Assembly: GCA_965372015.1 (NCBI GenBank)
Contig: CBDVAP010000002.1
Coordinates: 568-64,567 of the forward strand
From: an uncultured bacterium
Lineage (GTDB): Bacteria; Fidelibacterota; Marinisomatia; SCGC-AAA003-L08; TS1B11
Length of the DNA: 64,000 nt
Reading direction: 5' to 3'
The notes under the pieces were generated by a model that was given only the letters and a program-made list of their open reading frames with translations, did no database searches and had not been told where the DNA came from. The position numbers and the translations under genes are program-made. Positions 2,465 to 63,941 of this stretch are shown piece by piece; within the stretch, counting starts at the first letter, position 1, and each line of letters begins with the position of its first letter.

Positions 2465-2927
2465 AGAGTCGGTCTGCCATGCCCGGTAGTCGCCCATCTA
2501 GTCGGAGAAAAGGGTTGCCGCTTAGAGCCTGCGCTAAGGTATGCAATGAAACAGAGTGCGTCAATATATTATCCTGATTGCCGCCACCGGCCGGGCGTTA
2601 CAGATACTCTCCGGCAATCCTAAATTCAGGCTAACTGGAGTTTTACATCAGGCCAATTATCTGCTTGCACTCTTTCACATATTGGCGTAACCTCCGACGG
2701 CTCGAATTTTGGGATCTTTGTTTGATTAATGTCGCTGGCAGTATTACCCTTCCCGCATCATTCCCTTTGACAAAGAAATCTAAGTAACATTGAGCACGAG
2801 TAACCTCATTGCCGAAGTGCATCTTCCCAGGCAACGGGGTCTGGATTAAATCGCAGTGGTTCCTGACGGGGGACAGCCTATGCTGAAACACCTTTCGGAA
2901 CCGTGCAAGTAAGAGGAATCAATCAAC

Positions 2928-3182
2928 GTGAAGAAAATCTACGTTGGAAACCTGCCTTTTAGCGCCACTGAAGGCGAAGTAAAAGAGCTGTTTGAGCAAC
3001 ACGGATCAGTGACTTCTGTCAATCTGATCACCGATCGGGATACCGGGAGATTCCGGGGTTTCGGATTTGTCGAGATGGACGAAGCCGATGCCGATTCTGC
3101 CATCAAAGCGCTGAATGACCAGGATTTTGGTGGCCGTCCCCTGAGAGTCAATGAAGCCAGGGACCGTCAACCAAGACCCTGA
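2928..3182 (+). CDS. RRM-type RNA-binding protein
   Basis: 84 aa with RNP-2 (IYVGNL) and RNP-1 (RGFGFVEM) motifs. GTG start preceded by aagagga. Confidence 0.9.
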   Translation: MKKIYVGNLPFSATEGEVKELFEQHGSVTSVNLITDRDTGRFRGFGFVEMDEADADSAIKALNDQDFGGRPLRVNEARDRQPRP

Positions 3183-3238
3183 GTACCAGGCTCATTGGTT
3201 TAACAAACGTCAGGCTCCGGCCTGATATCTAACTGTCA

Positions 3239-3270
3239 GGGGGCACAATTAATAGTTGTGTCCCCTTTAT
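3239..3270 (+). terminator. Hairpin plus T-run between convergent genes
   Basis: gggggcacaa / ttaatag / ttgtgtcccc followed by tttat. It lies between the RRM gene (+) and the kinase-family gene (-). Confidence 0.5.
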
Positions 3271-14257: not shown

Positions 14258-17200
14258 CTAGCGGATCAAGGTCATCTTGATGGTATGCGTATAGTCCGCC
14301 GTTACTAATCGGGCAAAATAGATTCCGGTGGGTACCGGTCGCCCCATGTGGTCGCTACTGTTCCAGCTGACCTTTTTAAATCCGGCGCTTTCATAGCGCT
14401 CCACCAGTCGGATGACTTCCCGTCCCCGCATATCATAGATCACCAGCCGCACGTGTGACTGCATGGGCAGCTCATAGTGCACCGTGGTCACCGGGTTGAA
14501 CGGGTTGGGATAATTCTGGTGTAGCGCGAACAATTGCGGCAAGTGCGAATCATCCACCACGGCCAGCGTGCTCAGGTCGATCTCCAATGAGGATGGTCCG
14601 TCGGTGTTCCAAGTGGTATCCGAACCCGAAACGGCCCCCACCTCCCACCGGAAGGTTTCCCTCTCCACACCGTTATCTAGCATGAATGTAACCACCAGTT
14701 CCCGCAGCAAGTGTAGCTCTGGTTCAGTTACCGGTTGGGTTATTTCAAACTCGGAGTCTTCCTGCCAGAGGGCGAAGATATAAGTGATCGCATCACCGTC
14801 AGGATCACTGGAAGGTTCCCAGGTGAAAAGGATACTGGTATCGGGATCGTCGGCCTGTATAACCAGGCTGCTGCCACTGGCCGGGCCCACCAACTCAAAG
14901 CCTGTCGGCAAATCATTGACCGGAAGGATGGTCAGGGTAAAGGTGTCCTGGGCTGTGGCCTGTCCATCCATTACGGTCACCACAATCTGGGCCTTTCCAT
15001 TCCAATTGGCTGCCGGGGAGAATGCCATGCTGGTATCTCCCATTGCCACAGTTACCGCTGATGTATCGCTCACGGCGCTGAAGCTCAGTGCATCACCATC
15101 TACATCAACGACGGCTGCCGCAATATCCGCCAGAGAAATCTGGGCGATTACATCTTCAGGGATAAAGAGATCGGGAATAAGGGCAATGAACTGCGGCGCG
15201 TCGTTCACCGGCAGAATCTCAAGTACCAGTGTCTCCTGGACAGATGCCCCAGCCGGGTCTGTGGCGGTCACCTCGATATTTACTGTGCCGTAATAGTTCG
15301 GTGTGAGTACCACGATCAGTTTTTGCTCACTTAAACCGAAAAACCCTTCCAGTCCCGCGTCCGCCGTGGTGGCAGCGAAAGTCAATTGGTCCCCATCCCG
15401 GTCAGTGAAATATTCACCGAGATCGGGAATCAGGGTATCAATGTACGTATCCTCAGAGATCTGCAGATCCGGTAGAGACATCAAACTGTAGGGCGACTGG
15501 TTGGCTGTCAGGCCCGCTGCAAAGCCGGAGAAGTGGGTGATCCAGCCGGTTAAGGTAAGTGCTACCTCATTCACTTCATTGGAATCGGCCACCGACCATT
15601 CACCGGTCCCTTCATTGTAGATCAACAACACCAGGTCAGCAGGTGAGGACCCGTCTGGAATCACGTCCGGATTGTAAGGTACAGTTACTGCCACCGGCAT
15701 GTTGAACTGGAGACCGGTAGGGCCATAGAAGTACAGCACGCCGGCCAGCTCCGGTCCTTCCGGCGACGCGGCGAACTCACCTATTATAATGGTAACTGTA
15801 TCATCTAGAGCACCAGCCGGGATGTTGATGGAGGTTCCCAACCCCGTGCTGACCTCGCCACCTTCCGGTCCCACCTCTTCATTGACGGTTTCATCACCTA
15901 AGTCCACCAGCACAGTCACAGTGGCGGAAGCGCTTCCTCCCTGCCCGTCGCTGATCGTATAGTCGAAAATGTCGGCGCCGCTGAAATCATCCTCGGGCGT
16001 GTAAACGATGGCGTCCCCGAAAATCTCTGTTTCGCCATGGGCCGCCATATCAACGGAAGTGATCGACAGGTCGTTGCCGTCGATATCATCGTCATTGGCT
16101 AGCACCGGGATTGTTACCGGCGCGCCGTCGCCGGTGGTAGCCTGATCATCCAGGGCCACCGGGTCGTCGTTAACCGCCTCGACTGTCACGCTCACACCAG
16201 CGGAGGCCGAGCCGCCCTGGCCGTCGCTCACGTGGATCGTAAAGGTAGCGTCGCCGTCCCCCTCGCCCGGGGTGCCGGAGACCGTGGCCCCGTCGGCCGA
16301 CAGCCATCCGGGCAGGCCGGTGAATGAGAAGGTCAAGTCATCGCCGTCCGCATCGGTGGCAGTGGCGGTATAGCTGAAAGGTACATCCTCGGTGGCGTCG
16401 GCCGAGGTAGCCGAAGTGATTACCGGATCGTCGTTAACCGCCTCGACTGTCACGGTGACCTGTGCTTCATCTTCGACACCCTCAGCGTCCCGGATGGTGT
16501 AAAAGAAAATATCATCACCCGAGAAATTGGGCGTCGGTTCATAGGACAGGCTCTTGCCACCGTCGATGATATGCAGAACGCCGTTAGCCTGCCTGAAGTT
16601 GGTGATGATCAGATCATCTCCGTCTACATCGATATCATTGGCGAGCACATCCAGGGTGCTGACCGGGGAATCTTCGGAAACGGAGAAAGCGTCTGCCACC
16701 GCCACCGGGGCGTCGTTCACCGCGCTGACCGTGAAGGTGGCCGGGTCGCTGTCGCTCAAATCGGACGGATCGGTGGCAGTGAAGGTGATGGCCTCACTAC
16801 CTGACCATTCGGCATCAGGAATGCCGATGGTTGCTATCCGGCTGCCATTGATAGAGACGGTCAACGCGCTGTTCCCGCCGTATGTCCACGTGATCTCGCT
16901 ATCGGCATTGTCCAGGTCGCTTACGTACTCGTCCAGTGCGATGGTGGCAAAGGAGCCGCCCTCGCCAATTGTCTGGTTGGGGATATCCGCCACCACCGGC
17001 GCATCGTTCACCGCGCCGACCGTGAAGGTGGCCGGGTCGCTGTCACTCAAGCCGGACGGATCGGTGGCAGTGAAAGTGATGGCCTCACTACCTGACCATT
17101 CGGCATCAGGAATGCCGATGGTTGCTATCCGGCTGCCATCGATGGAGACGGTCAACGCACCATTCCCGCCATATGTCCAAGTGATCTCGCTATCGGTATT

Positions 17201-18559
17201 GTCCAGGTCGTCTACGTACTCGTCCAGTGCGATGGTGGCAAAGGAACCGCCCTCATCAATTGTCTGGTTGGGGATATCCGCCACCACCGGAGCATCGTTC
17301 ACGCCGCCAACCGTAACCGTGACCTGTGCTTCATCTTCGACACCCTCGGCGTCCCGGATAGTGTAAAGGAAAATATCATCACCCGAGAAATTGGGCGTGG
17401 GTTCATAGGACAGGTGTTTTCCACCGTTGATGATATGCAGCTTACCGTTGGCCTGCCTGAAGTTGGTGATGATGAGATCATCTCCGTCTACATCGATATC
17501 ATTGGCGAGCACATCCAGTGTACCGACCGGGGAATCTTCGGAAACGGAGAAAGCGTCTGCCACCGCCACCGGGGCATCGTTCACCGCGCCGACCGTGAAG
17601 GTGGCCGGGTCGCTGTCGCTCAAGCCGGACGGATCGGTAGCAGTGAAGGTGATGGCCTCACTACCTGACCATTGGGCATCAGGAATGCCGATGGTTGCTA
17701 TCCGGCTGCCATCGATAGAGACGGTCAACGCCCTGTTCCCACCGTATGTCCAGGTGATCTCGCTATCGGAATTGTCCGGGTCGCTTACGTACTCGTCCAG
17801 TGCGATGGTGGCAAAGGAGCCGCCCTCATCGATTGTCTGGTCGGTGATATCCGCCACCACCGGCGCGTCGTTCACCGCGCCGACCGTGAAGGTAGCCGGG
17901 TCGCTGTCGCTCAAGCCGGTGGGATCGGTGGCGGTGAAGGTGATGGCCTCACTGCCTGACCATTGGGCATCAGGAATGCCGATGGTTGCTATCCGGCTGC
18001 CATCGATGGAGACGGTCAACGCACCATTCCCGCCATATGTCCAAGTGATCTCGCTATCGGTATTGTCCAGGTCGTCTACGTACTCGTCCAGTGCGATGGC
18101 GGCAAAGGAGCCGCCCTCATCAATTGTCTGGTTGGGGATATCCGCCACCATTGGCGCGTCATTAGTCCCACTAACCGTGACGGTGATGGTGCCGGTGGCG
18201 GTGTTGCCTTGATCCCCGTCATCTTGGCCCTGGTCTTTGCGCAGGGTATAGGTGAAACTGTCGACGCCATAGAAACCGGTGCTGGGGGTATACGTGAGGG
18301 TGCCGTCTTCGTTGTCGATAACCGTACCATTGGCTGGAGTCGAAAAACCATCCAGATGGATCTCTTGCCCTTTCTTCTTACCCTTGCCTTTGTCCTTGCC
18401 TTCATCGTCGTCGTCATCAGCTATCACGGTAATCGTCACCGGTGTACCTTCGTCCGTGCTGACCTCCATATCGGGCGCGGTCAGCTTATCGGCCCGCAGT
18501 ACCTGAAAGCCCAGGAAAAATACCAGCAACTGTAAAGTGATTGTCCTATTGATCTTCAT
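14258..18559 (-). CDS. Giant (1433 aa) cell-surface repeat protein with a T9SS C-terminal sorting domain
   Basis: Signal peptide MKINRTITLQLLVFFLGFQVLRA. Many ~95-97-aa VNDAP-bounded cadherin-like/tandem-95-type repeats. C-terminus NYPNPFNPVTTVHYELP...GIYFARLVTADYTHTIKMTLIR. Confidence 0.85.
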   Translation of the reverse strand: MKINRTITLQLLVFFLGFQVLRADKLTAPDMEVSTDEGTPVTITVIADDDDDEGKDKGKGKKKGQEIHLDGFSTPANGTVIDNEDGTLTYTPSTGFYGVDSFTYTLRKDQGQDDGDQGNTATGTITVTVSGTNDAPMVADIPNQTIDEGGSFAAIALDEYVDDLDNTDSEITWTYGGNGALTVSIDGSRIATIGIPDAQWSGSEAITFTATDPTGLSDSDPATFTVGAVNDAPVVADITDQTIDEGGSFATIALDEYVSDPDNSDSEITWTYGGNRALTVSIDGSRIATIGIPDAQWSGSEAITFTATDPSGLSDSDPATFTVGAVNDAPVAVADAFSVSEDSPVGTLDVLANDIDVDGDDLIITNFRQANGKLHIINGGKHLSYEPTPNFSGDDIFLYTIRDAEGVEDEAQVTVTVGGVNDAPVVADIPNQTIDEGGSFATIALDEYVDDLDNTDSEITWTYGGNGALTVSIDGSRIATIGIPDAEWSGSEAITFTATDPSGLSDSDPATFTVGAVNDAPVVADIPNQTIGEGGSFATIALDEYVSDLDNADSEITWTYGGNSALTVSINGSRIATIGIPDAEWSGSEAITFTATDPSDLSDSDPATFTVSAVNDAPVAVADAFSVSEDSPVSTLDVLANDIDVDGDDLIITNFRQANGVLHIIDGGKSLSYEPTPNFSGDDIFFYTIRDAEGVEDEAQVTVTVEAVNDDPVITSATSADATEDVPFSYTATATDADGDDLTFSFTGLPGWLSADGATVSGTPGEGDGDATFTIHVSDGQGGSASAGVSVTVEAVNDDPVALDDQATTGDGAPVTIPVLANDDDIDGNDLSITSVDMAAHGETEIFGDAIVYTPEDDFSGADIFDYTISDGQGGSASATVTVLVDLGDETVNEEVGPEGGEVSTGLGTSINIPAGALDDTVTIIIGEFAASPEGPELAGVLYFYGPTGLQFNMPVAVTVPYNPDVIPDGSSPADLVLLIYNEGTGEWSVADSNEVNEVALTLTGWITHFSGFAAGLTANQSPYSLMSLPDLQISEDTYIDTLIPDLGEYFTDRDGDQLTFAATTADAGLEGFFGLSEQKLIVVLTPNYYGTVNIEVTATDPAGASVQETLVLEILPVNDAPQFIALIPDLFIPEDVIAQISLADIAAAVVDVDGDALSFSAVSDTSAVTVAMGDTSMAFSPAANWNGKAQIVVTVMDGQATAQDTFTLTILPVNDLPTGFELVGPASGSSLVIQADDPDTSILFTWEPSSDPDGDAITYIFALWQEDSEFEITQPVTEPELHLLRELVVTFMLDNGVERETFRWEVGAVSGSDTTWNTDGPSSLEIDLSTLAVVDDSHLPQLFALHQNYPNPFNPVTTVHYELPMQSHVRLVIYDMRGREVIRLVERYESAGFKKVSWNSSDHMGRPVPTGIYFARLVTADYTHTIKMTLIR
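16455..18165 (-). repeat. Two tandem 864-nt (288-aa) near-identical units inside the adhesin gene, each built from two 291-nt A repeats plus one B repeat
   Basis: gtgacctgtgcttcatcttcgacaccctc occurs at 16455 and 17319 (offset 864). Long by-eye alignment shows only scattered substitutions. The antisense track ORFs 16554..17366 and 17427..18212 are shadows of the same duplication. Confidence 0.85.
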
Positions 18560-55205: not shown

Positions 55206-55636
55206 TCTTTCTGGTTATCAACGGCCCTAACCTGAACCTTTTGGGTAAGCGCGAGCCGGAACTGTACGGCAGCGAGACCCTGGCCGACATTCAGGTCTGG
55301 TTGCAGTTCCAGGTGGAAACTAAGGGGGATAAACTCCAGTTTTTTCAGAGCAACCACGAAGGTGCCATTATCGACTACCTGCACGGCGAGATCGGTGTGG
55401 CTGACGGGGCGGTGATCAATCCCGGCGCCCTGACACATTACAGTTATGCCCTGCGGGATGCCATCGCCGCCGTGGACTTCCCGGTGGTGGAAGTGCACCT
55501 CACGGACATCCATAGCCGGGAGGAATTTCGACGCCATTCGGTCACCACGGAGGTGTGTATCGAGCAGATTTCAGGTCAAGGGAAAAAGGGATACCTGGAG
55601 GCTATCGAGCTGCTGCGTAAGCATAAGGCGGGCTAG
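55202..55636 (+). CDS. aroQ: Type II 3-dehydroquinate dehydratase
   Basis: INGPNLNLLGKREPELYG, SNHEGAIID, INPGALTHYS. Confidence 0.95.
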   Translation: MIFLVINGPNLNLLGKREPELYGSETLADIQVWLQFQVETKGDKLQFFQSNHEGAIIDYLHGEIGVADGAVINPGALTHYSYALRDAIAAVDFPVVEVHLTDIHSREEFRRHSVTTEVCIEQISGQGKKGYLEAIELLRKHKAG

Positions 55637-56379
55637 TTTTCCTCCTCCTCGGCTGGGACGAACAGCTCGTCCGGCAGCCCCTGATTGACCCGGTAGTTGC
55701 TGAACTCGATGACCGCCTCACCGACGCCACCGGGGCCTTCCTGCGGCTGATGATCATCGTCCCCCCGATGCTTCCGCCGCCGGCGAGGGCCATGCGGCAG
55801 GCGCTGGATAAAGCGCTCATCAAAATTGAAGTGTATCGTGGTGCGTACCGGCAGAAAGATACCGGCCGTAATCTCCTCGTAATCGATATTCAGCCGCAGC
55901 AACTCCAGGGTACCGCTATAAGAGACTGCCCCCAGAATGACCCACCGCTGCCGGTCTACCAGCACTTTCGCCCGCAAGGATTGCCCCTCGATCTCGCTTT
56001 CACCCTGTAGCACCAATACCGGCCGACCCTCCACCAGGGTGTCACCGGCCAGTCGCAGTTCCCCCAGACCTGCGAGCAGAGAATCGGGCGATAGCAGCAA
56101 TCCCCGCCGGGGCACCATGGCAAAACCCCGGGCCTTGAGTGCCAGTTTATCCGGCTGCTTGAACGATAATTTCATCCGCTTGCGGGGCAGGCGCAGCCGG
56201 GGCATCTTTAGCCGCACCTTCAAGTCCACCTGGTAGTCCTGGATCCGACTGAACCGCGCCCGCAGGGAATCCCTTACTGTGGATAATGTTACCACGCTAC
56301 CCGCGTCCATGGGAGTTTGGGCGGCCAGCTGGGCCGACAGGCAGATGAAAAGGGACAGTATTGCCGAGCGAAAAATCAT
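55633..56379 (-). CDS. LolA-like / outer-membrane lipoprotein-sorting-domain protein (tentative)
   Basis: The Met at 56379 gives the signal MIFRSAILSLFICLSAQLAAQ. C-terminal ...IEFSNYRVNQGLPDELF pattern. The track start at 56535 adds a non-signal extension. Confidence 0.45.
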   Translation of the reverse strand: MIFRSAILSLFICLSAQLAAQTPMDAGSVVTLSTVRDSLRARFSRIQDYQVDLKVRLKMPRLRLPRKRMKLSFKQPDKLALKARGFAMVPRRGLLLSPDSLLAGLGELRLAGDTLVEGRPVLVLQGESEIEGQSLRAKVLVDRQRWVILGAVSYSGTLELLRLNIDYEEITAGIFLPVRTTIHFNFDERFIQRLPHGPRRRRKHRGDDDHQPQEGPGGVGEAVIEFSNYRVNQGLPDELFVPAEEEEN

Positions 56380-56596
56380 GGTTTCCTTGGTAGAGTGAAA
56401 AGTGAAATTAGGAGTGGCGGGGTACTTTAGAAAAGGAGCAATCGTCGCCGAGGACTCGATACTCGAGGCTAGATACTGGAAACTCGATATTGGATACCGG
56501 ATGGGGCCCCGCCAGCGGCGGGGCAATGCCGACAACTAGAAACTCGTTACATGGAACTAGGATTCCAGGGCTGAGGACTATGCTGGTATTAATGTA

Positions 56597-56619
56597 AAAG
56601 CCCCCGGCCGGGGGCTTTT
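56597..56619 (-). terminator. Palindromic GC hairpin flanked by A/T runs; likely terminator of the tmRNA/GIY-YIG transcript
   Basis: aaaa gcccccgg ccgggggc tttt. Confidence 0.6.
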
Positions 56620-56620
56620 A

Positions 56621-57015
56621 GTTGGTGTGGAGGCGGGGGGAGTCGAAGTCTCGCCGGACTCCCCGTAGGGCGGGTACGCCCAGGGTAGGCGTAGCCTCCG
56701 GCTACGACGAGGCCCCCCGTCCATCTGAATTGGCAAACATGGCAAGCCTATTACGAGGGAACCTCGCAATCAAATCACGCTTATGTTTACCAAGTGTGTG
56801 TGATTTAAGCAATTTTTCACGGAGACGTGCATCGATCAGGGTAGTGTGCTCCTCATAATAGACCAGCCGGAGTGGTCTGCGATATCGTGTACTCTTGCTG
56901 TACCCCAAGTTATGCTCCTTGATCCTGCGACGTAAATCGGTCGTCGAGCCGGTGTAGAGCTGACCGTCCTTTGCAGATTCAAGTATATATACGAATGCCA
57001 TGGGGAAGTAAGGAT
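56621..57015 (-). mobile_element. Mini-cassette (GIY-YIG gene + 66-nt structured segment) bracketed by duplicated tmRNA 3'-end sequence
   Basis: tggaggcggggggagtcgaa occurs at 56628-56647 and 57019-57038. cccccgtcc occurs at 56714-56722 and 57039-57047. Confidence 0.45.
56702..57001 (-). CDS. GIY-YIG nuclease-family protein (short YhbQ/UPF0213-like)
   Basis: FVYILESAKDGQLYTGSTTDLRRRIKEHN...RPLRLVYYEEH...AR.REK.LK. The ATG is 14 nt after the tmRNA CCA end. Confidence 0.8.
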   Translation of the reverse strand: MAFVYILESAKDGQLYTGSTTDLRRRIKEHNLGYSKSTRYRRPLRLVYYEEHTTLIDARLREKLLKSHTLGKHKRDLIARFPRNRLAMFANSDGRGASS

Positions 57016-57376
57016 TGGTGGAGGCGGGGGGAGTCGAACCCCCGTCCGAAAAGGCGACCTGAGCTGCTTCTACGTGCGTAGTCTGTTGCTGAGTCTCACC
57101 GCCCGGGCGCCGGCAGACAAACTACCGGGCGGCCAGCCCGCAAAGTCTTATCCCGTACCTGCGGGCAATGTACGGGACCAGTCCACTAATATGACGCCGG
57201 CACCTGGGGAAATGGACACTCCTCAGGGCGACGAGCTGCCTAACTGTTAAGCGGCAGCCAGATAACCGTAGTTATCGGCATTTGTGTTGAATTGCCCGGA
57301 TGATTCACGAGGTAACCAGACATCCTCGGCACGCCACGGCTCTCATCGTCCAATCCGTCGAAGCCGTTTCGCCCCC
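57016..57376 (-). ncRNA. ssrA: tmRNA (SsrA)
   Basis: 5' GGGGGCGAAACGGCTTCGACGG and 3' GGACGGGGGTTCGACTCCCCCCGCCTCCACCA form an acceptor stem with a G3-U pair. Tag reading frame GCC GAT AAC TAC GGT TAT CTG GCT GCC GCT TAA (ADNYGYLAAA) at 57247-57279. Confidence 0.9.
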
Positions 57377-57514
57377 TTTTCAAAGAGCTGCAACCTATCA
57401 ACCCTAAAGGCTGTTTTCGGTCACCTGGATAATATAACTTGTTTCCCGCTCAATCCCAAGGATTTGCGCGGCTCGATCTTAATCCTAATCGGTCGATAGT
57501 GAAAGATATTTAAT

Positions 57515-58723
57515 ATGATCAAGATCACCTCGGAAACGCTGCCCCAGTTCCAAAAGTTCCTGCGGGACCGGGAACTGGATGGTTGGCTGCTCTACGACTT
57601 CCACCACCTCAACCCTTTCGCTTACCTGTTCCTGCCCTTGGACAATGGCGTTTTCACCCGCCGTTGGTTCTATTTCCTGCCGGCCAAGGGCGCTCCGCAA
57701 ATAATGGTGCACCGCATTGAGCAGCACCATTTCACCCATCTGACCGGCGAGCACCATCCCTACAGCGGTTGGCGCGAGCTGGAGGCCGGCCTGGGGGACC
57801 TGCTCCAAGGCAGCGAAAAAATCGCCATGGAATACTCCCCCGGCGGGGCCTTGCCGTACGTGAGCATGATCGACGCCGGTACCCTGGAGCTGGTGCGCAG
57901 CAAAGGGGTGCAGGTGTTCTCCTCGGCGGACATTATCCAGTACTTTCATTCCCGTTGGACCCCCACTGGTTACCAGGCTCATAAGGCCACGGTACCAGTG
58001 GTGCACGAAATTCGCGAAAAGGCGTTTAAAGCCATCGCCCAGGCCATCCGGAATGGCCAGGCGATTACCGAGTACCACATCCAGCAACAGATCGTGGCCG
58101 ATTTCACTGCCGCCGGCCTGAAGTTCGATCATCCACCTATCGTCGCGGTGAACGACCACGCCGCCCAACCCCATTACTCGCCCAGCGCCCAGTCCAGCGC
58201 GCCCATCAAAAAGGGCGATCTGGTGCTCATCGACATGTGGTGCAAACAGGCCGACGATCCCGAGGCCACTTACGTAGACATCACCTGGACCGCTTTCGTT
58301 GGTGAAAAGGTGCCTGAGAAAATCGCCCGGGTCTTCGATATCGTCCGCCAGGCACGCGATACAGCCGTGGCCTTCGTTACCGAACAGCTGGCCAGTGGAC
58401 AACCAGTCATGGGCGGCGAGGTGGACGACGCCTGCCGGCAGGTGATCGAGCGGGCGGGCTACGGGGAGTACTTCACCCACCGCACCGGCCATTCCATCGA
58501 TACCGAGGTGCACGGCGCCGGGGTGAATATCGACCACATGGAGGTGCGCGACGACCGCACCCTGATACCCGGGGTGGGCTTTTCCATTGAACCGGGCATC
58601 TACCTGCCGGGTGAGTTCGGCATTCGCAGCGAGATCGACTGCTACATGGGCGAAAGCGGCGTGGAAGTAACCACCGCCCCCTCCCAGGAGGAGGTGCTGC
58701 CGCTGCTGGCGCTCTGGCAGTAG
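57515..58723 (+). CDS. M24-family Xaa-Pro aminopeptidase
   Basis: DLVLIDMW...D, HRTGHSID, GFSIEPGIY..GEFGIRSE metal ligands. Confidence 0.85.
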   Translation: MIKITSETLPQFQKFLRDRELDGWLLYDFHHLNPFAYLFLPLDNGVFTRRWFYFLPAKGAPQIMVHRIEQHHFTHLTGEHHPYSGWRELEAGLGDLLQGSEKIAMEYSPGGALPYVSMIDAGTLELVRSKGVQVFSSADIIQYFHSRWTPTGYQAHKATVPVVHEIREKAFKAIAQAIRNGQAITEYHIQQQIVADFTAAGLKFDHPPIVAVNDHAAQPHYSPSAQSSAPIKKGDLVLIDMWCKQADDPEATYVDITWTAFVGEKVPEKIARVFDIVRQARDTAVAFVTEQLASGQPVMGGEVDDACRQVIERAGYGEYFTHRTGHSIDTEVHGAGVNIDHMEVRDDRTLIPGVGFSIEPGIYLPGEFGIRSEIDCYMGESGVEVTTAPSQEEVLPLLALWQ

Positions 58724-58868
58724 CCCGCGGCAAGTGGCGGCCGTCACCAGGTCGCAGCATGATCCAGGACGTTAGCCAAGGTCCCGGTTATGATATTCAT
58801 CATTGATTTCTATAGTTTTTCTTAGTAGACTGCGACCAACTCCGCTCTATCAATATTAGGAGACCAAC

Positions 58869-61800
58869 ATGCATCAGCTGTATTACTCCCGTAAGTGCTG
58901 CACTCTCACTTTAATGGTTACCTGTCTAGTGCTGGCCTCGCAACTGCATGCCCAGGCACCAGACACTCTCTGGACAAAATCCTTTGGCACTGAATTTGAG
59001 GTGATGTTCAACTCAATAGAACAGCTGCCTGGTGGGGGATACATTTTAGCTGGACATAGGGAATTCTCCAACGATCCGGACAGAGAAGTTAGATTAGCTA
59101 CCCGTGCATATTGGTTGGTCCGCCTGAATAGTGCCGGGGATGACACCGTATGGACAGAAGCTTTCCCCGCTGGTGGTACCGAAGGCCGCATGGCCATAGC
59201 CACATCCGATAGCGGTGCTGTGATCGTAGGTACCGGAGATCCCAGGATCATCAAAACCAATGGTGATGGTGTTCTTCAGTGGCAACTTGGAGAAACCGAA
59301 CTAGATGGGGGTATCCTTGGGATTGAAGAAACCGCTGATGGCGGTTTTATAGCCTGCGGGTATAATGATTCTGGCCCAACTGGTGGTGCCAGCATCGCAA
59401 GAATTACTGCTGCCGGAGCCGTCACTTGGCAAAAAGCATATGGGCCAGCGTATGACTCCTACCTGTTCTCGATTACTGAACTAAGCAATGGAGATTTTGC
59501 TGCGGCTGGTCTTCATGGCACATTCTCGGAGGGTAACAGCGGTGATGGGTGGCTATTTATGATATCCGCCGCCGGCGATTCCTCTTCATCGGTTTTTTAT
59601 GGTGTTCAAACAGTTAGTAATCACGAATATTTTTCTACCATCAGGTCTACGAGTGATGGTGGATTCATCCTCCTAGGTAACCAAGAGCTGGACGGGCAAA
59701 GCAGGACACCATACCTGGTCAGAACTAATGGCGCAGGTGTGGAGCAATGGGCAACAACACTGAGCAGTACAGTGGTGGGTGAACTGCTTGATGTCATTCA
59801 GACAAGTGATGGAGGATTCACACTGACGGGATATGGCGATCTGACTTTAGCCGATGGCTTCGAGATGGTGCTAATCCATACCAATAATGCGGATGGTACC
59901 ACCGCTTGGACCAAGCAGGTAAATACTCCTGCTGGGGCAGCTGGCTTGGGATTGGTAGAAATATCCGCCGGTGAATATCTAGCTGCGGGAGTGATAATTC
60001 CGGAAACGGACGCTCCCATGGACGGTTGGATTGTGCGCCTGGGAGTAAGTGCGGCTAACTTATTTGAACAAGACTCCCTGGCCCTGGTGGACATATACAA
60101 CACCATGGACGGTGCCAACTGGAACAACCCCTGGACACTTACGGATCCCGTCATCACCTGGGATGGCGTGACCATCTACAATGGCAGAGTTACACAACTG
60201 AGCTTCTATAACAAAAACTTGTCCGGCTCGATTCCGCCCTCGATTGTTGACCTCACCGCAGTATGGAATCTATCGTTCAACGGCAATCCGGGTCTCGATT
60301 CAATCCCCGCTTTTATAGGGCAGATGACAAATCTGTATACACTGGATTTATCGTTTTGTAGTCTCACCACTGTACCCACGGAGCTAGGTAATCTGGAAAA
60401 TCTGGAAACTTTGTACCTCCAAAACAATTCGCTGACGGGCGTCTTCCCTGTCTGGCTTGCTGACCTTTCAAACTTGATGACTTTGCGGATCGATAACAAC
60501 CAATTTACCGGGCCTATCCCAACGGCTGTCACGACTCTGGCGAACCTCACCACGTTTTGGATCAACAACAACCGTTTCAACTTTGCTGATATCGAACCAC
60601 TGATTCAGGCCGGACTGCCCGTGACCTACGCACCCCAGGCGGATGTGGGCACACCGGTAGATACGACTGCCTACCTGGGGCAGCCTTTCAGTATCGAGTT
60701 CACGACGCCTGGAACGGCCAATACGTACCAGTGGCAGAAGAACAATGTAAATATTACCGGAGAAATCGATCCCGTTTTGAGCTTTACCGCCATCGCCTAC
60801 ACGGATTCAGGCAGCTATGATGTCACCATCGAAAACACCATCGCGATTGCCCTGACTCTTTCCAGCGAGGATATATTTATCCATGTCGTTCTGCCGCCCA
60901 TTCATTTCGATTCTCTCGCCCTGGTGGCTCTGTATAATAGCACCGATGGTGCCAACTGGACCAACAGCACCGGGTGGCTCCATCCGGATTCTACGCTATC
61001 CACCTGGTACGGCATCACCATCTCAGGGGACCGGGTCACGGGTCTGGAGATGTCCTCTAACAATCTTTCGGGCACCCTCCCCACCGAGATTGGTAACCTC
61101 ACCAGTTTGTTGCATTTGACGCTTTCCAGCAACCAATTGACCGGCGCTATTCCCGCTGAGATCGGTAGCCTCACTCGCCTGTTCACACTGGAGCTTTATT
61201 CCAATCAACTGACCGGTTCTATTCCCCCCGATATCTGGAACCTGGATAATTTGACGATCTTGTCCCTTGGCGGGAACCAACTAACCGGAGCTATTCCAGT
61301 CGAGATCGGCAATCTCATTAATTTGGGCAGTTTGAACCTTTCCAATAGCCAACTCACCGGAACCATTCCCAATGAGATCAGCGCTCTAACCGCTTTATGG
61401 GCCATAGAACTGGGCGGCAACCAATTATCCGGTCCTATTCCCACGGGGATTGGCAACCTCACGAATCTGTGGAACCTAAGTCTTACAGGGAATCAGCTAA
61501 CGGGTTCTATTCCTTCCGGGATTGGCAACCTCACGAAACTGACTTTCCTGCGGCTTGCATACAATCAACTAACCGGTGCCATCCCAGCCGGAATAGGCAA
61601 CATGCCTGCTCTGACAATCCTGACAATGGGAGGCAATCAACTAACCGGTCCGATTCCCCCGGAGATCGGCAAAGACACCAGCCTGACCTGGCTTGACCTG
61701 TCCGATAATAAGCTCACCGGCCCCATCCCTGCGGAGATGGGCAAACTGACCAAACTGGATAACGTATACCTGAATATGAACCAGTTATCTGGTACTATTC

Positions 61801-62699
61801 CCGCTGAACTGGGAAACCTGACTAATTGCACTTATTTATATATGCACGCCAACCAACTCACCGGTGCAGTCCCGCCTGAGATTGGCGGCCTGGCCAGCGT
61901 GACCTCTCTGCAATTGGGACACAACCTATTGACATCAATCCCAGCGGAAATCGGAAATCTGTTGGCTCTTAACACCCTGAATCTAGATTTCAATCGGTTA
62001 GCGGACTTGCCAGATCTCAGTACTCTAACTTCATTATCCCTGCTACAGATAAATGACAACATGCTCACCTTCGGTGATATCGAACCTCTTATGGGTTTGT
62101 CTATCGGATATATACAATATGCGGGGCAGGATTGTGTAGGTACCGAGATAGATACTACCGTAGATATTGGAACCCGGCTGGTTATGTCGGTATCAACAGA
62201 CGGCGACTCTAACCATTACGCATGGTGGCAGGTGACTGGTATGTACCCGCGCGGCACCGACAGTGACACCCTGGTCATTGAATCAGTAAGTCCCTCGGAT
62301 TCTGGTGCTTACGTCTGTTACATTGGAAATACCCTCGCCGACCAGCTCACGCTTATCAGCCGGCCCGTCTACGTCACCGTAATCGGAGGCCTGGCAGTTT
62401 CGGAAAATGAGGGTATCCCGGCTGAATTCGCCCTGCATGCCAACTATCCGAACCCCTTCAATCCCAGTACGACCATCCGCTTCGATCTGCCCCAGGCCTC
62501 GGAAGTCCACCTGGCGGTCTACGATATCCTTGGCCGGGAGGTGGTGCGGCTGGTGGACGAGAGGCTGGAACCGGCTTATCACCAAGTCACCTGGAACGGC
62601 AGGACCGCCCACGGTATGGATGTACCTACCGGTATCTATATTGCGCGGTTGGTTACGCCCCAGTACACCAGGTCCATCAAGATGCTTTTATTGAAATAG
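58869..62699 (+). CDS. Large secreted protein: propeller-like repeats, then two [LRR cap - 24-aa LRR array - Ig-like] modules, then a T9SS C-terminal sorting domain
   Basis: Signal peptide; xGDxxW repeats; LxxLxLxxNQLTGxIPxxIGNL repeats (about 16 in the second array); YQWQKNNVNI...DSGSYDV Ig-like; C-terminus NYPNPFNPSTTIRFDLP...GIYIARLVTPQYTRSIKMLLLK. Confidence 0.85.
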   Translation: MHQLYYSRKCCTLTLMVTCLVLASQLHAQAPDTLWTKSFGTEFEVMFNSIEQLPGGGYILAGHREFSNDPDREVRLATRAYWLVRLNSAGDDTVWTEAFPAGGTEGRMAIATSDSGAVIVGTGDPRIIKTNGDGVLQWQLGETELDGGILGIEETADGGFIACGYNDSGPTGGASIARITAAGAVTWQKAYGPAYDSYLFSITELSNGDFAAAGLHGTFSEGNSGDGWLFMISAAGDSSSSVFYGVQTVSNHEYFSTIRSTSDGGFILLGNQELDGQSRTPYLVRTNGAGVEQWATTLSSTVVGELLDVIQTSDGGFTLTGYGDLTLADGFEMVLIHTNNADGTTAWTKQVNTPAGAAGLGLVEISAGEYLAAGVIIPETDAPMDGWIVRLGVSAANLFEQDSLALVDIYNTMDGANWNNPWTLTDPVITWDGVTIYNGRVTQLSFYNKNLSGSIPPSIVDLTAVWNLSFNGNPGLDSIPAFIGQMTNLYTLDLSFCSLTTVPTELGNLENLETLYLQNNSLTGVFPVWLADLSNLMTLRIDNNQFTGPIPTAVTTLANLTTFWINNNRFNFADIEPLIQAGLPVTYAPQADVGTPVDTTAYLGQPFSIEFTTPGTANTYQWQKNNVNITGEIDPVLSFTAIAYTDSGSYDVTIENTIAIALTLSSEDIFIHVVLPPIHFDSLALVALYNSTDGANWTNSTGWLHPDSTLSTWYGITISGDRVTGLEMSSNNLSGTLPTEIGNLTSLLHLTLSSNQLTGAIPAEIGSLTRLFTLELYSNQLTGSIPPDIWNLDNLTILSLGGNQLTGAIPVEIGNLINLGSLNLSNSQLTGTIPNEISALTALWAIELGGNQLSGPIPTGIGNLTNLWNLSLTGNQLTGSIPSGIGNLTKLTFLRLAYNQLTGAIPAGIGNMPALTILTMGGNQLTGPIPPEIGKDTSLTWLDLSDNKLTGPIPAEMGKLTKLDNVYLNMNQLSGTIPAELGNLTNCTYLYMHANQLTGAVPPEIGGLASVTSLQLGHNLLTSIPAEIGNLLALNTLNLDFNRLADLPDLSTLTSLSLLQINDNMLTFGDIEPLMGLSIGYIQYAGQDCVGTEIDTTVDIGTRLVMSVSTDGDSNHYAWWQVTGMYPRGTDSDTLVIESVSPSDSGAYVCYIGNTLADQLTLISRPVYVTVIGGLAVSENEGIPAEFALHANYPNPFNPSTTIRFDLPQASEVHLAVYDILGREVVRLVDERLEPAYHQVTWNGRTAHGMDVPTGIYIARLVTPQYTRSIKMLLLK

Positions 62700-62941: not shown

Positions 62942-63014
62942 GCGCCATTAGCTCAAATGGTAGAGCAGCGGACTCTTAATCCGAAGGTTGAAGGTTCGAT
63001 TCCTTCATGGCGCA
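62942..63014 (+). tRNA. tRNA-Lys (anticodon CUU)
   Basis: Hand-folded cloverleaf: acceptor gcgccat/atggcgc, anticodon loop cuCUUaa, T-loop ttcgatt, discriminator a. Confidence 0.85.
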
Positions 63015-63048
63015 CAACAGGGTACCAAGGGTGGTGCCCACTGTTTGC

Positions 63049-63121
63049 GACACGGTAGCTCAGTCGGTAGAGCAGCGGCCTTTTAAGCCGTTGGTCGTGG
63101 GTTCGATTCCCACCCGTGTCA
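63049..63121 (+). tRNA. tRNA-Lys (anticodon UUU)
   Basis: Acceptor gacacgg/ccgtgtc, anticodon loop cuUUUaa, T-arm gtggg-ttcgatt-cccac. Confidence 0.85.
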
Positions 63122-63941
63122 CAACGTCAAGACCCTCTATTCCCGACGGGACTAGGGGGTCTTCTGTTGCCTGGTGTGTAGTTGCAGGTTGGGCAGGCTT
63201 AGGCAGCTCAGAGGGGGGGTCTAGGCGCGTTTTGGGCGCGTTTTTTGGGCGCGTTTTTAGCAAGCTGTCAATATTGGTATCGGATAGCCGCCCGGTGAAA
63301 TGATCCCCCAGGTCTGTCAACATCTTTCGCCTTCGTTCCTCGAGTTGCTTGTAGTAATATTTCTCGGTGATTTTGATTGTGCTATGCCCGGCAATCTTGG
63401 ATACGTCCTCCAAGGGATAGCCAAGGTAAATCAGGTGGGATACAAAGCTGTCCCGCAAATCGTGAACCGTTGCATCTATCCTGGCGCTGTTGAGAATCGC
63501 CTTGATTTTATGCCCTATATAGGCTGGAGTAAACGGAAAGGGGTAAAGCGAATCCGCTGGCTCGATGTATCGAGCCTTGCGATACGGTTTCATCCTTAAT
63601 TCCCTAAAGATTTCTAGCAAGACTGTATCCAAGGGAAACTCGGTGGATTTGTGGCCCTTGCGGATCGGTAGCGTCAGAATTTCATTCTCGAAATCTATGC
63701 CCTTCCAAGTGAGCTTGGGCTTGAGCACTTCCGAAAGTCGCGCACCAGTCAAGAGGTAAACCATAATTAAGGGATACCACCGGTTGCCGGGTGGACATTT
63801 CTTGAAAAGCCGCTCGAGTTCGGCGGGGGTCAATGGCCTTGGTCGGCCTGTATCGGCTGGGAATAGTTCAACGGCAGCAAAAGGATTGGAGGAAATGTAG
63901 TCTTTTTTCCAGCCTGACCTGCCCCCCAAAAGCTGTACCAA
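63060..63941 (-). CDS. Tyrosine recombinase/integrase (catalytic domain intact; N-terminus short; 3' end of the ORF reads antisense through tRNA-Lys)
   Basis: TGARLSE (Arg), HDLRDS (His-x-x-Arg), GHSTIKITEKYY (His, Tyr). TTG start with an in-frame TGA two codons upstream. The last ~20 codons (VTRVGIEPTTNGLKGRCSTD) are the tRNA complement. Confidence 0.7.
   Translation of the reverse strand: MVQLLGGRSGWKKDYISSNPFAAVELFPADTGRPRPLTPAELERLFKKCPPGNRWYPLIMVYLLTGARLSEVLKPKLTWKGIDFENEILTLPIRKGHKSTEFPLDTVLLEIFRELRMKPYRKARYIEPADSLYPFPFTPAYIGHKIKAILNSARIDATVHDLRDSFVSHLIYLGYPLEDVSKIAGHSTIKITEKYYYKQLEERRRKMLTDLGDHFTGRLSDTNIDSLLKTRPKNAPKTRLDPPSELPKPAQPATTHQATEDPLVPSGIEGLDVVTRVGIEPTTNGLKGRCSTD
63224..63258. 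repeat. Three tandem copies of g(g)gcgcgtttt(tt)
   Basis: ggcgcgtttt gggcgcgtttttt gggcgcgttttt, read directly. Confidence 0.8.

Follow-up and report, generated by a model that had tools for sequence, protein, structure and literature searches.

The tmRNA locus and its second 3′-end

The locus described here raises the question of how a small nuclease gene can come to lie between an essential RNA gene and its terminator. The locus is part of a stretch of 64,000 nt from an uncultured marine bacterium of the Marinimicrobia (assembly GCA_965372015.1, contig CBDVAP010000002.1, positions 568 to 64,567), which is called the window throughout. Within the window, the gene for the transfer-messenger RNA (tmRNA), ssrA, is followed on the same strand by an open reading frame (ORF) for a GIY-YIG protein, and the ORF is followed by a second, interrupted copy of the tmRNA 3′-end. 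The recurrence of this kind of arrangement at tRNA and tmRNA genes of many bacterial phyla points, as far as the sequences can tell, to an apparently undescribed kind of mobile gene cassette. The features of the locus are listed below in the order of transcription. Locus coordinates refer to the minus strand unless otherwise marked, and L-numbers are labels of homologue-, tmRNA- or repeat-bearing loci from other assemblies.

57431..57459, minus strand: promoter-like TTGGGA-17-TATATT upstream of ssrA (a consensus match that is as frequent in shuffled sequence)
57016..57376, minus strand: tmRNA gene (ssrA), complete, CCA encoded (ARAGORN; RF00023, 191.5 bits)
57018..57047, minus strand: repeat copy 1, GGACGGGGG TTCGACT CCCCC CGCCTCCAC, the functional T-arm and acceptor 3′ strand (read from the sequence, repeat comparison)
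57002..57015, minus strand: 14-nt spacer from the CCA end to the ATG, without a terminator and without a Shine-Dalgarno motif (sequence, terminator and promoter scan)
56702..57001, minus strand: predicted GIY-YIG nuclease ORF, 99 aa, of the minimal Slx1-like or UPF0213 type (PF01541, 1zg2/1ywl, AlphaFold2/Foldseek)
56714..56722, minus strand: 5′ half of the leftover copy, GGACGGGGG, the T-stem 5′ strand and the 4 preceding nt (9/9 vs 57039-57047)
56648..56713, minus strand: 66-nt imperfect palindrome, GCCTCGTCGTAGCC…GGCGAGAC (read from the sequence; shorter versions in relatives)
56627..56647, minus strand: 3′ half of the leftover copy, TTCGACT CCCCC CGCCTCC A C (21/21 vs 57018-57038)
56595..56620, minus strand: intrinsic terminator hairpin AAAAGCCCCCGG/CCGGGGGCTTTT, with arms of 13 nt that match perfectly and TTTT behind them

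The tmRNA gene (57376..57016) was identified by ARAGORN with the tag peptide ADNYGYLAAA, and it matched the Rfam model over its full length (model positions 1-374, E = 7e-78) with CCA at the end. The initial annotation had described a complete tmRNA, a gap of 14 nt and a 99-codon GIY-YIG ORF on the strand of the tmRNA, and these coordinates were confirmed. Its duplicated tmRNA 3′-end was found to be slightly longer than described, because the repeat of 20/20 nt extends to 21/21 nt (56627-56647 vs 57018-57038) and comprises the T-loop, the T-stem 3′ strand, the acceptor 3′ strand and the discriminator plus C. The 9-nt piece (56714-56722 vs 57039-57047) is exact as well. Within a region of 1.1 kb, the chance expectation for exact 21-mers is about 1e-7. 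What had been overlooked is that a palindrome splits the leftover T-arm, and that the two downstream repeat pieces are the two halves of this single T-arm.

A comparison with the empty sites of relatives, which are described below, shows that the last 30 nt of ssrA are directly duplicated with the ORF between the copies. The cassette has a length of about 390 bp. The upstream copy completes a normal tmRNA, and the downstream copy retains the terminator. The 3′ half of the leftover has no CCA (it reads CTCCA-CAC), like the empty sites of relatives. The hairpin that had been noted as the lone good terminator after the second copy is the 13-nt inverted repeat at 56595-56620, and its position resembles that of the native ssrA terminator in the empty site L085. 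The last seven codons and the stop codon of the ORF run through the leftover T-stem into the insert, and the stop codon (56704..56702) lies inside the insert. A second copy of the GIY-YIG gene, of the insert unit or of the repeat was not found within the 64-kb window.

The promoter-like site is the sole promoter candidate for the whole unit, a consensus match without excess over shuffled sequence. The stretch from the tmRNA 3′-end to the start of the ORF contains no terminator-like sequence; both matches of the scan (57140..57124) are inside the tmRNA. The ORF is probably transcribed by read-through from ssrA and freed by tmRNA 3′-end processing. Such co-transcription fits because the spacer comprises 14 nt, the ATG is located 1-3 nt past the RNA 3′-end in L093, L100, L101, L110 and L127, and a single terminator follows the leftover.

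The same layout in other Marinimicrobia

The closest relatives of the protein are encoded in metagenome-assembled genomes (MAGs) of Candidatus (Neo)marinimicrobiota. In all fetched relatives, which had protein identities of 55-92%, the gene was the immediate downstream neighbour of a tmRNA gene, with both on one strand, and a leftover T-arm followed the ORF. The leftover T-arm was split at the same position as in the window, by an insert with the same ends. The order of tmRNA, GIY-YIG ORF and split leftover T-arm was present in at least 8 other Marinimicrobia lineages, and the inserts differed in length:

L001, L097, L098: insert of 37 nt; protein identity 90-92%
L082, L099: insert of 83 nt, made up of a tandem pair of 42-nt units; one more leftover, degenerate, upstream of the ORF
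L089-92: inserts of 28 and 25 nt; two leftovers
L093, L094: insert of 38 nt
L095, L096: leftover spans about 100 nt of the tmRNA
L100, L251: insert of 37 nt
L101: insert of 40 nt

Both halves of the leftover T-arm match the T-stem of the tmRNA of their own lineage, which is GGGGG, GGCGG, GGGAG or GCGAG. Therefore, the leftover has changed together with the functional copy. Tandem arrays of the type ORF-leftover-ORF-leftover were observed in four lineages (L093, L095, L097 and L100), and unequal recombination in such arrays would be a possible route to the concerted evolution of both copies.

Three of these loci showed additional features. The 886-nt contig L097, whose cassette is 92% identical to that of the window, re-enters the spacer and the start of the ORF after the leftover (790-886), which speaks for a tandem array, with a circular form as the less likely alternative; the nearly identical L098 has a single cassette, which is followed by the terminator. 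In L095 (600-2070), the last leftover tmRNA fragment of the tandem array is truncated, and a gene for a Mu-like transposase follows (rve, Mu-transpos_C_2). In L089 (1130-2572), as well as in L090 and L091, a group II intron with a reverse transcriptase (RVT_1, GIIM) is located right after the terminator of the leftover, a position that fits introns targeting terminator hairpins.

Empty sites and signs of turnover

The initial annotation had named the ssrA loci of relatives as the place to look for empty sites, and such sites do exist. A first search with the tmRNA tag pattern recovered only two loci that were already known. A pattern derived from the tmRNA body revealed four ssrA loci of Neomarinimicrobiota without a GIY-YIG gene, i.e., L085, L086, L087 and L088. 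The tag peptide of L085 is that of the window, and its tmRNA shares 78-81% identity with the tmRNAs of the window and L001. The ssrA gene of L085 ends with ...CGCCTCCAC-AAACCAAAAAGCCCC and has a terminator 10 nt beyond, and this end closely resembles the second copy plus terminator of the window. The tmRNA ends of the empty sites L085, L086 and L088 are CTCCAC-AAA or CTCCAC-TAT.

A close pair is formed by the empty locus L086 and the filled locus L101. Their tmRNAs are 95% identical, both have the same tRNA-Arg gene downstream, and the ORF of L101 is frameshifted. Thus, the cassette is present, absent or decaying among close relatives, and alleles with the gene (the window, L001, L101 and others) and without it (L085-L088) occupy the same locus in related genomes.

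A palindromic insert splits the leftover T-arm

The 66-nt insert of the window reads GCCTCGTCGTAGCCGGAGGCTACGCCTAC-CCTGGGCGTACCCGCCCTACGGGGAGTCC-GGCGAGAC. With the last G of the T-stem 5′ strand immediately before it and the first T of the T-loop immediately after it, the insert breaks the universally conserved TΨC motif GG|TTCGAnTCC (here GG|TTCGACTCC). A second, degenerate unit seems to be nested within a first repeat unit. The minimal insert of the Marinimicrobia, GCCTCGGCGTAG-C-CTACGGCGAGCC, is an imperfect palindrome with conserved ends and conserved C·C and G·G mismatches. It has a centre of variable length, exhibits two independent compensatory changes (GTAG/CTAC to GGAG/CTCC), and is GC-rich even within AT-rich genomes. 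In silico folding of the leftover copies yielded a modest gain compared to shuffled sequences (z -1.2 to -3.1). We do not claim a structured RNA because the gain is modest and the conservation is mainly that of the sequence, with just two compensatory changes.

The search for units outside ssrA was confined to near-consensus short units because the degenerate unit pattern matched mostly by chance in GC-rich genomes. Near-consensus units were found in contigs of the Marinimicrobia type, namely L202, which belongs to the MAG of L001, and L229, L238, L205, L226 and L197. Therefore, the insert probably belongs to a dispersed family of small palindromic repeats. In L197, at least three copies of the unit are part of composite repeats that flank the gene for a small nuclease with a DUF559 domain.

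Four candidate roles of the palindrome can be envisaged. It could destroy the recognition motif of the nuclease in the leftover, block the formation of a second tRNA-like RNA from the leftover, shorten a homology that would otherwise be able to delete the cassette, or form a structure that is recognized by the Slx1-like enzyme.

Two of the repeat-bearing loci deserve a description of their own. In L197 (2300-3800; Neomarinimicrobiota contig JAIPJR010000116), the composite repeats have a length of about 250 nt, and the ORF between them (2859-3260) encodes a restriction-endonuclease-like DUF559 protein of 133 aa. The repeats contain the palindromic unit (GCCTCGGTGGAGCCTACAGCGAGCC) together with other palindromes (CCCCTCTCGAGAGGGG, CCCCTCCAGAGGAGGGG), and hence a second kind of small nuclease gene is embedded in the palindromic-unit repeat family. 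L195 (440-630, minus strand) contains a complete tRNA-Phe gene and, about 70 nt further on, a leftover T-arm of the form GGCGG|unit|TTCAATTCCGCC, with no GIY-YIG ORF between them. The split T-arm of L195 is probably the remnant of a cassette that lost its gene.

The GIY-YIG protein

The protein matched the Pfam family GIY-YIG (PF01541) with 57.7 bits, compared to a cutoff of 22.6 (E = 1.4e-15). In an alignment with 30 homologues, the residues Y5, Y16, G18, R26, H30 and E50 were invariant, so the predicted GIY-YIG catalytic residues have been kept. A phmmer search against PDB retrieved 1zg2 (3.9e-8) and 1ywl (1.4e-5), and among solved structures, those of the "hypothetical UPF0213" proteins BH0048 and EF2693 are nearest in sequence. 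The AlphaFold2 model has a predicted local distance difference test score (pLDDT) of 87, with short helices at residues 68-91 and a disordered end at residues 94-99. Foldseek ranked 1zg2 (BH0048) best, followed by Slx1 (7cq3, 6sei, 4xlg) and, more weakly, by the catalytic domain of I-TevI (1ln0). The model and the Foldseek matches support the alpha/beta fold of GIY-YIG proteins. Taken together, the protein is, as judged from the sequence matches and the modelled fold, a member of the GIY-YIG superfamily of the minimal Slx1-like or UPF0213 type (COG2827) without accessory domains.

The ratio of nonsynonymous to synonymous substitution rates (dN/dS) between the window and its 90-92% identical relatives was 0.26-0.47. 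This shows purifying selection, and by this measure the gene is functional. An assignment to the I-TevI or Seg type of homing endonucleases was rejected: the group I intron endonuclease model TIGR01453 scored 23.8 bits, below its cutoff of 56.05, and matched residues 1-35 only, and the ORF ends at residue 99 without a C-terminal DNA-binding domain or linker.

Linkage of the family to tRNA and tmRNA genes

The initial annotation had also raised the point whether other copies of this gene adjoin tRNA or tmRNA genes with duplicated pieces, and across the family the answer was positive. Homologue-encoding loci from genomes (80) and from metagenomes (80) were surveyed, with a total of 174 ORF copies. 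A tRNA or tmRNA gene was present on the same strand within 400 nt of 95 copies and on the opposite strand in 2 cases, compared to 0.46% for random 270-nt intervals in unrelated control loci. The partners included tRNA-Asn, Trp, His, Cys, Phe, Gln, Met, Gly, Glu, Lys, Ser and Ala, plus tmRNA.

Two layouts were observed. In type A, which is that of the window, a complete RNA gene is followed by the ORF and then by a 3′ fragment. In type B, a 5′ fragment is followed by the ORF and then by a complete tRNA gene, and the end of the ORF often overlaps the 5′ end of the tRNA gene. In one type B locus (L131), the start codon is derived from the D-loop of the fragment. A partial copy of the RNA gene beyond the ORF, counted as significant at p <= 0.01 per case, was detected in 17 of 47 type A loci and 26 of 52 type B loci (about 43% overall).

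Leftovers were also read by eye, and in these a GC-rich hairpin interrupts or replaces part of the fragment, in the D-loop, in the 5′ strand of the anticodon stem or in the 5′ half of the TΨC motif. One hairpin family, CCCTCCGARTCGGAGGG, is common to leftovers of tRNA-His (L009), tRNA-Phe (L070) and tRNA-Lys (L110) in different genomes. GC-rich perfect hairpins occurred at 2.1 per kb within 120 nt of the ORF ends and at 0.4 per kb further off, a fivefold difference for which the contrast between intergenic and coding sequence may account in part.

Two of the surveyed loci illustrate the range of arrangements. In L110 (1040-1830), a single tRNA-Lys gene has a GIY-YIG cassette on each side, each with a hairpin-interrupted partial copy of tRNA-Lys; the upstream ORF contains an in-frame stop codon, and the downstream ORF begins 2 nt past the tRNA. 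In L149/L150 (984-1812), which represent another, AT-rich lineage, a GIY-YIG ORF with 49% identity is located 140 nt downstream of the tmRNA gene and beyond its terminator. No leftover copy was detectable there, and this may be an older or independent association.

Phages turned out to be a poor source of homologues. One match was found in 2.9 million viral contigs, and the 18 matches in 50,697 phage records were weak, with SegB of phage T4 absent from the matches at E <= 1e-3. The protein matched no PHROG family. This near-absence led to the rejection of a phage origin. A defence system was rejected as well, as there was no PADLOC match. Literature searches did not reveal any account of a bacterial GIY-YIG cassette that is accompanied by a duplicated tRNA or tmRNA part.

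A proposed selfish nuclease cassette and the alternatives

We favour the interpretation that a selfish nuclease cassette has settled at the 3′-end of ssrA, and that cassettes of this kind reside in tRNA and tmRNA genes, spare them by partial duplication and are expressed by read-through. We assign a probability of about 0.6 to this interpretation. A minimal GIY-YIG cassette that uses tRNA-like sequence was one of the two readings offered by the initial annotation, and the empty sites and the tRNA- and tmRNA-linked family speak for it. That the nuclease cuts the T-arm and thereby drives mobility or maintenance of the cassette is what we infer from the analogy to SegB.

The cassette might work as follows. 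The ORF would have no promoter or terminator of its own. The nuclease would break the DNA of tRNA or tmRNA genes, as phage SegB does at the TΨC stem-loop, and through recombinational repair, empty alleles would acquire the cassette and tandem arrays would arise or collapse. The duplication would let the element occupy an essential RNA gene without splicing, and the palindrome within the TΨC motif would disable the downstream copy as a tRNA-like RNA, as a nuclease target or as a long recombination partner. If homing and immunity are at work, the cut would be expected in or near GGTTCGACTCC of the empty ssrA 3′-end and not in the palindrome-bearing leftover.

Several observations weigh against the selfish cassette. 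Around 45% of the family members have no tRNA gene within 400 nt, and the metagenome loci are partly near-duplicates, so that the counts given above are counts of loci and not of independent events. The difference between L101 and L086 goes beyond a clean insertion, since the spacer to tRNA-Arg differs as well. An intact T-loop has been kept in two leftover copies (L074 and L110). The functional upstream T-arm is intact too, and if the T-arm were the target, it would still be cleavable in cells that carry the cassette. The protein lacks the DNA-binding domain that confers specificity to SegB and I-TevI, and to our knowledge neither a cleavage activity nor a target is known for any bacterial member of UPF0213, this protein included. 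Lastly, pairwise protein identities roughly track the tmRNA identities, and a comparison of the two revealed no direct sign of recent horizontal movement within the Marinimicrobia, nor any of a recent transfer over a long range. This congruence fits a long residence with recurrent loss, or a transfer mainly among close relatives. Therefore, equal weight is due to a long residence with losses and to a recent spread.

The same congruence would be expected if the nuclease were of benefit to the host, e.g., in RNA processing, repair or quality control, and had been inherited vertically in an operon with tRNA or tmRNA genes for the sake of co-expression, with the duplications as by-products of old rearrangements. 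The strict same-strand linkage across phyla and the purifying selection on the ORF are in accordance with such a role, and for a prokaryotic Slx1-like domain that is fused to a TrmH-type tRNA methyltransferase, a role in RNA metabolism has been suggested (PMC1564403). However, the gene is distributed patchily even among very close relatives, as the empty locus L086 exemplifies, one copy is frameshifted, tandem arrays occur, and the many different tRNA partners each have their own partial duplication. These are traits of insertion events and not of a conserved operon, and we regard a beneficial host gene as unlikely, if worth keeping in mind. [quoted passage not shown] The GIY-YIG protein would then be their dedicated nuclease, as the REP-associated tyrosine transposase (RAYT) is for REPs, its gene would merely be located amid its own repeats, and the leftover tRNA pieces would be among the few neutral landing sites. 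The units of L197, L202, L229, L238, L205 and L226 outside ssrA and the one hairpin family that interrupts leftovers of three different tRNAs are in line with this, as is the fold match to Slx1, because Slx1-type enzymes are structure-specific. Nevertheless, the 64-kb window contains a single unit next to a single GIY-YIG gene, the units of L197 flank a different small nuclease, and neither the duplication of RNA genes nor the strict strand bias would be explained.

The other reading of the initial annotation was the eroded remnant of a genomic island of the integrase type. The repeats would then be attL and attR. Islands of this type are indeed classically marked by duplicated 3′-ends of tRNA and tmRNA genes. 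The tmRNA gene is a frequent site of island integration (PMC11915505). However, neither an integrase gene nor a fragment of one was found between the repeats in any lineage, including more than 10 related loci, and in the window the GIY-YIG ORF is the only content. The unit of about 0.4 kb is conserved and its one ORF is under selection (dN/dS 0.26-0.47), and the same layout recurs at dozens of tRNA genes, including 5′-side duplications that integrase islands do not make. An integrase island was therefore rejected, and we consider it very improbable. Practically no weight is given to a chance repeat or an assembly artefact, the latter of which had been mentioned in the initial annotation as a possible source of the repeat. 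Repeats can mislead assemblers, but about 1e-7 such repeats are expected by chance, and at least 10 independent assemblies have the same structure, among them L001, L097, L098, L082, L089, L093, L096, L100 and L101.

If the selfish cassette is real, a very large family of uncharacterized small nucleases, i.e., UPF0213 and the prokaryotic Slx1-like proteins, would gain a biological role. Integrase islands and group I introns would also be joined by another mode in which mobile DNA occupies tRNA and tmRNA genes, with partial gene duplication in the place of splicing or site-specific recombination. The SegB paradigm, in which a GIY-YIG enzyme targets TΨC-loop DNA and tRNA segments are amplified, would reach beyond phages into cellular chromosomes, and such nucleases may be compact enzymes that cut DNA at specific structures or motifs. 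Hairpin-bearing leftovers of tRNA and tmRNA genes can confuse the annotation of tRNAs, tmRNAs and genomic islands. A wider proposal is put forward tentatively and with clearly less confidence than the cassette itself. UPF0213 or Slx1-like mini-nucleases might largely be the engines of unrecognized mobile cassettes, which would be intron-like without splicing and would colonize tRNA and tmRNA genes in many phyla, including Patescibacteria and Marinimicrobia. A replacement part of the RNA gene would neutralize the insertion, and a GC-rich hairpin would disable the displaced fragment. The hairpin could possibly also be the recognition structure of the nuclease, so that the target would be chosen by DNA structure rather than by a DNA-binding domain.

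Surroundings of the locus

The neighbours of ssrA are a divergent gene for an M24 peptidase upstream and an uncharacterized gene without a Pfam match downstream. A 420-codon ORF (57485-58747, minus strand) is antisense to the M24 peptidase gene (57515-58723, plus strand), and this frame, in GC-rich sequence, is almost certainly spurious. On the promoter side of ssrA, at a distance of about 5.6 kb, the window contains two cassette-free tRNA-Lys genes (ctt and ttt, 62942-63122). Relatives also have tRNA-Lys on the promoter side of ssrA, 70-1,420 nt away, with both ctt and ttt in L087 and L088 and with ctt alone in L085, L094 and L096.

Downstream of the ssrA terminator, the region 56440-56560 is rich in short repeats of the type ATCGAGTATCC / CTAGTTCC, and a stretch of this type was also found in L001 (1560-1720) and L098. 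The gene beyond it is Ada-like in L001, whereas it is the uncharacterized ORF in the window. Further repeats in the window are tandem repeats in coding sequence at 16100-18200, with units of about 290 nt, and 72-nt leucine-rich-repeat units at 60000-62100 within a 1276-aa ORF (58869..62699). The C-terminus of this ORF resembles, by eye, a sorting domain of type IX secretion.

Comparison with known systems

SegB of phage T4 is a free-standing GIY-YIG homing endonuclease that is encoded inside the phage tRNA cluster. It recognizes 27 bp with the conserved core GGTTCRANTCC, which is the TΨC stem-loop, cuts the 3′-ends of tRNA genes, often just after CCAR, and secures its own inheritance (PMC2330249). 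In phage T6, SegB cleavage in tRNA genes leads to the recombination-dependent tandem amplification of segments that contain tRNAs plus segB. Its cleavage motif, RAWTSGAAC, corresponds to the T-loop in reverse complement, and segB genes are enriched beside tRNA genes in phages (PMC13096335). By analogy, SegB would be the nearest functional counterpart of the cassette. The ORF of the cassette begins 14 nt past the tmRNA 3′-end, at the place of the cut expected of such an enzyme, a SegB-type motif is interrupted in the leftover copy, and tandem arrays occur. In contrast, SegB is encoded by phages, is of the I-TevI lineage and has about twice the length (judged by the profile length of TIGR01453, 215). 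It is said to have a C-terminal DNA-binding region. The cassette protein is a 99-aa Slx1-like catalytic domain that is encoded on a cellular chromosome and belongs to a family that is nearly absent from phages. The partial duplication of a host RNA gene and the palindromic disruptor are features of the cassette that the two SegB papers do not describe for the segB locus (PMC2330249, PMC13096335).

The stand-alone UPF0213 proteins BH0048 and EF2693 are the best matches of the cassette protein in sequence and fold and share the minimal domain. EF2693 has been classified as prokaryotic Slx1-like, with a minimal stand-alone domain, but no function has been assigned to these proteins, and the classification paper makes no mention of a linkage to tRNA genes (PMC1564403).

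Mobile DNA at ssrA is represented in the tmRNA database paper by group I introns in the T-loop and by integrase islands only (PMC11915505). The introns, which reside in the TΨC-loop and some of which encode LAGLIDADG homing endonucleases, resemble the cassette in being mobile DNA at the T-loop that leaves tmRNA function intact (PMC11915505). Unlike them, the cassette has no ribozyme, its inserts comprise 25-83 nt, it relies on duplication instead of splicing, and its nuclease belongs to another family. An Rfam scan of 55500-58500 yielded no Intron_gpI at E <= 1, but only the tmRNA and chance-level matches, and with an insert of 66 nt, a group I intron or another known RNA in the cassette was rejected. 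With the integrase islands, the cassette shares a direct repeat of the tmRNA 3′-end that brackets foreign DNA and an upstream copy that restores the gene. It differs from them in having no integrase, a size of 0.4 kb with one gene, a distal repeat that is interrupted by the 66-nt palindrome, and variants on the 5′ side of tRNA genes.

REP sequences, bacterial interspersed mosaic elements (BIMEs) and their RAYTs may offer another parallel. They consist of short imperfect palindromes that are dispersed in the genome and flank the gene of a small nuclease, and the palindromic unit may be of a comparable kind. However, RAYTs have an HUH fold instead of a GIY-YIG fold, the copy number is low in the present case, and fragments of tRNA genes are not a feature of REPs.

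The layout of the cassette is also reminiscent of fungal mitochondria. Paquin et al. reportedly described, in 1994 and 2000, mobile endonuclease ORFs that carry a replacement for the 3′-end of the host gene, in atp6 of Allomyces and as "gene hybrids" in Glomus. These elements leave the resident 3′ part downstream as a remnant, and small GC-rich hairpins, i.e., double-hairpin elements and GC clusters, accompany the ORFs. Gene hybrids and the mobility of hairpins are mentioned in PMC3787672. The replacement 3′ part, the displaced remnant and the hairpin elements are common to both systems. In contrast to the fungal ORFs, which form in-frame fusions with protein-coding genes of an organelle, the cassette resides at a bacterial gene for a structured RNA, and its hairpin is located inside the remnant at a fixed structural position. 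Taken together, we rate the cassette as an extension of the free-standing homing-type nuclease cassettes.

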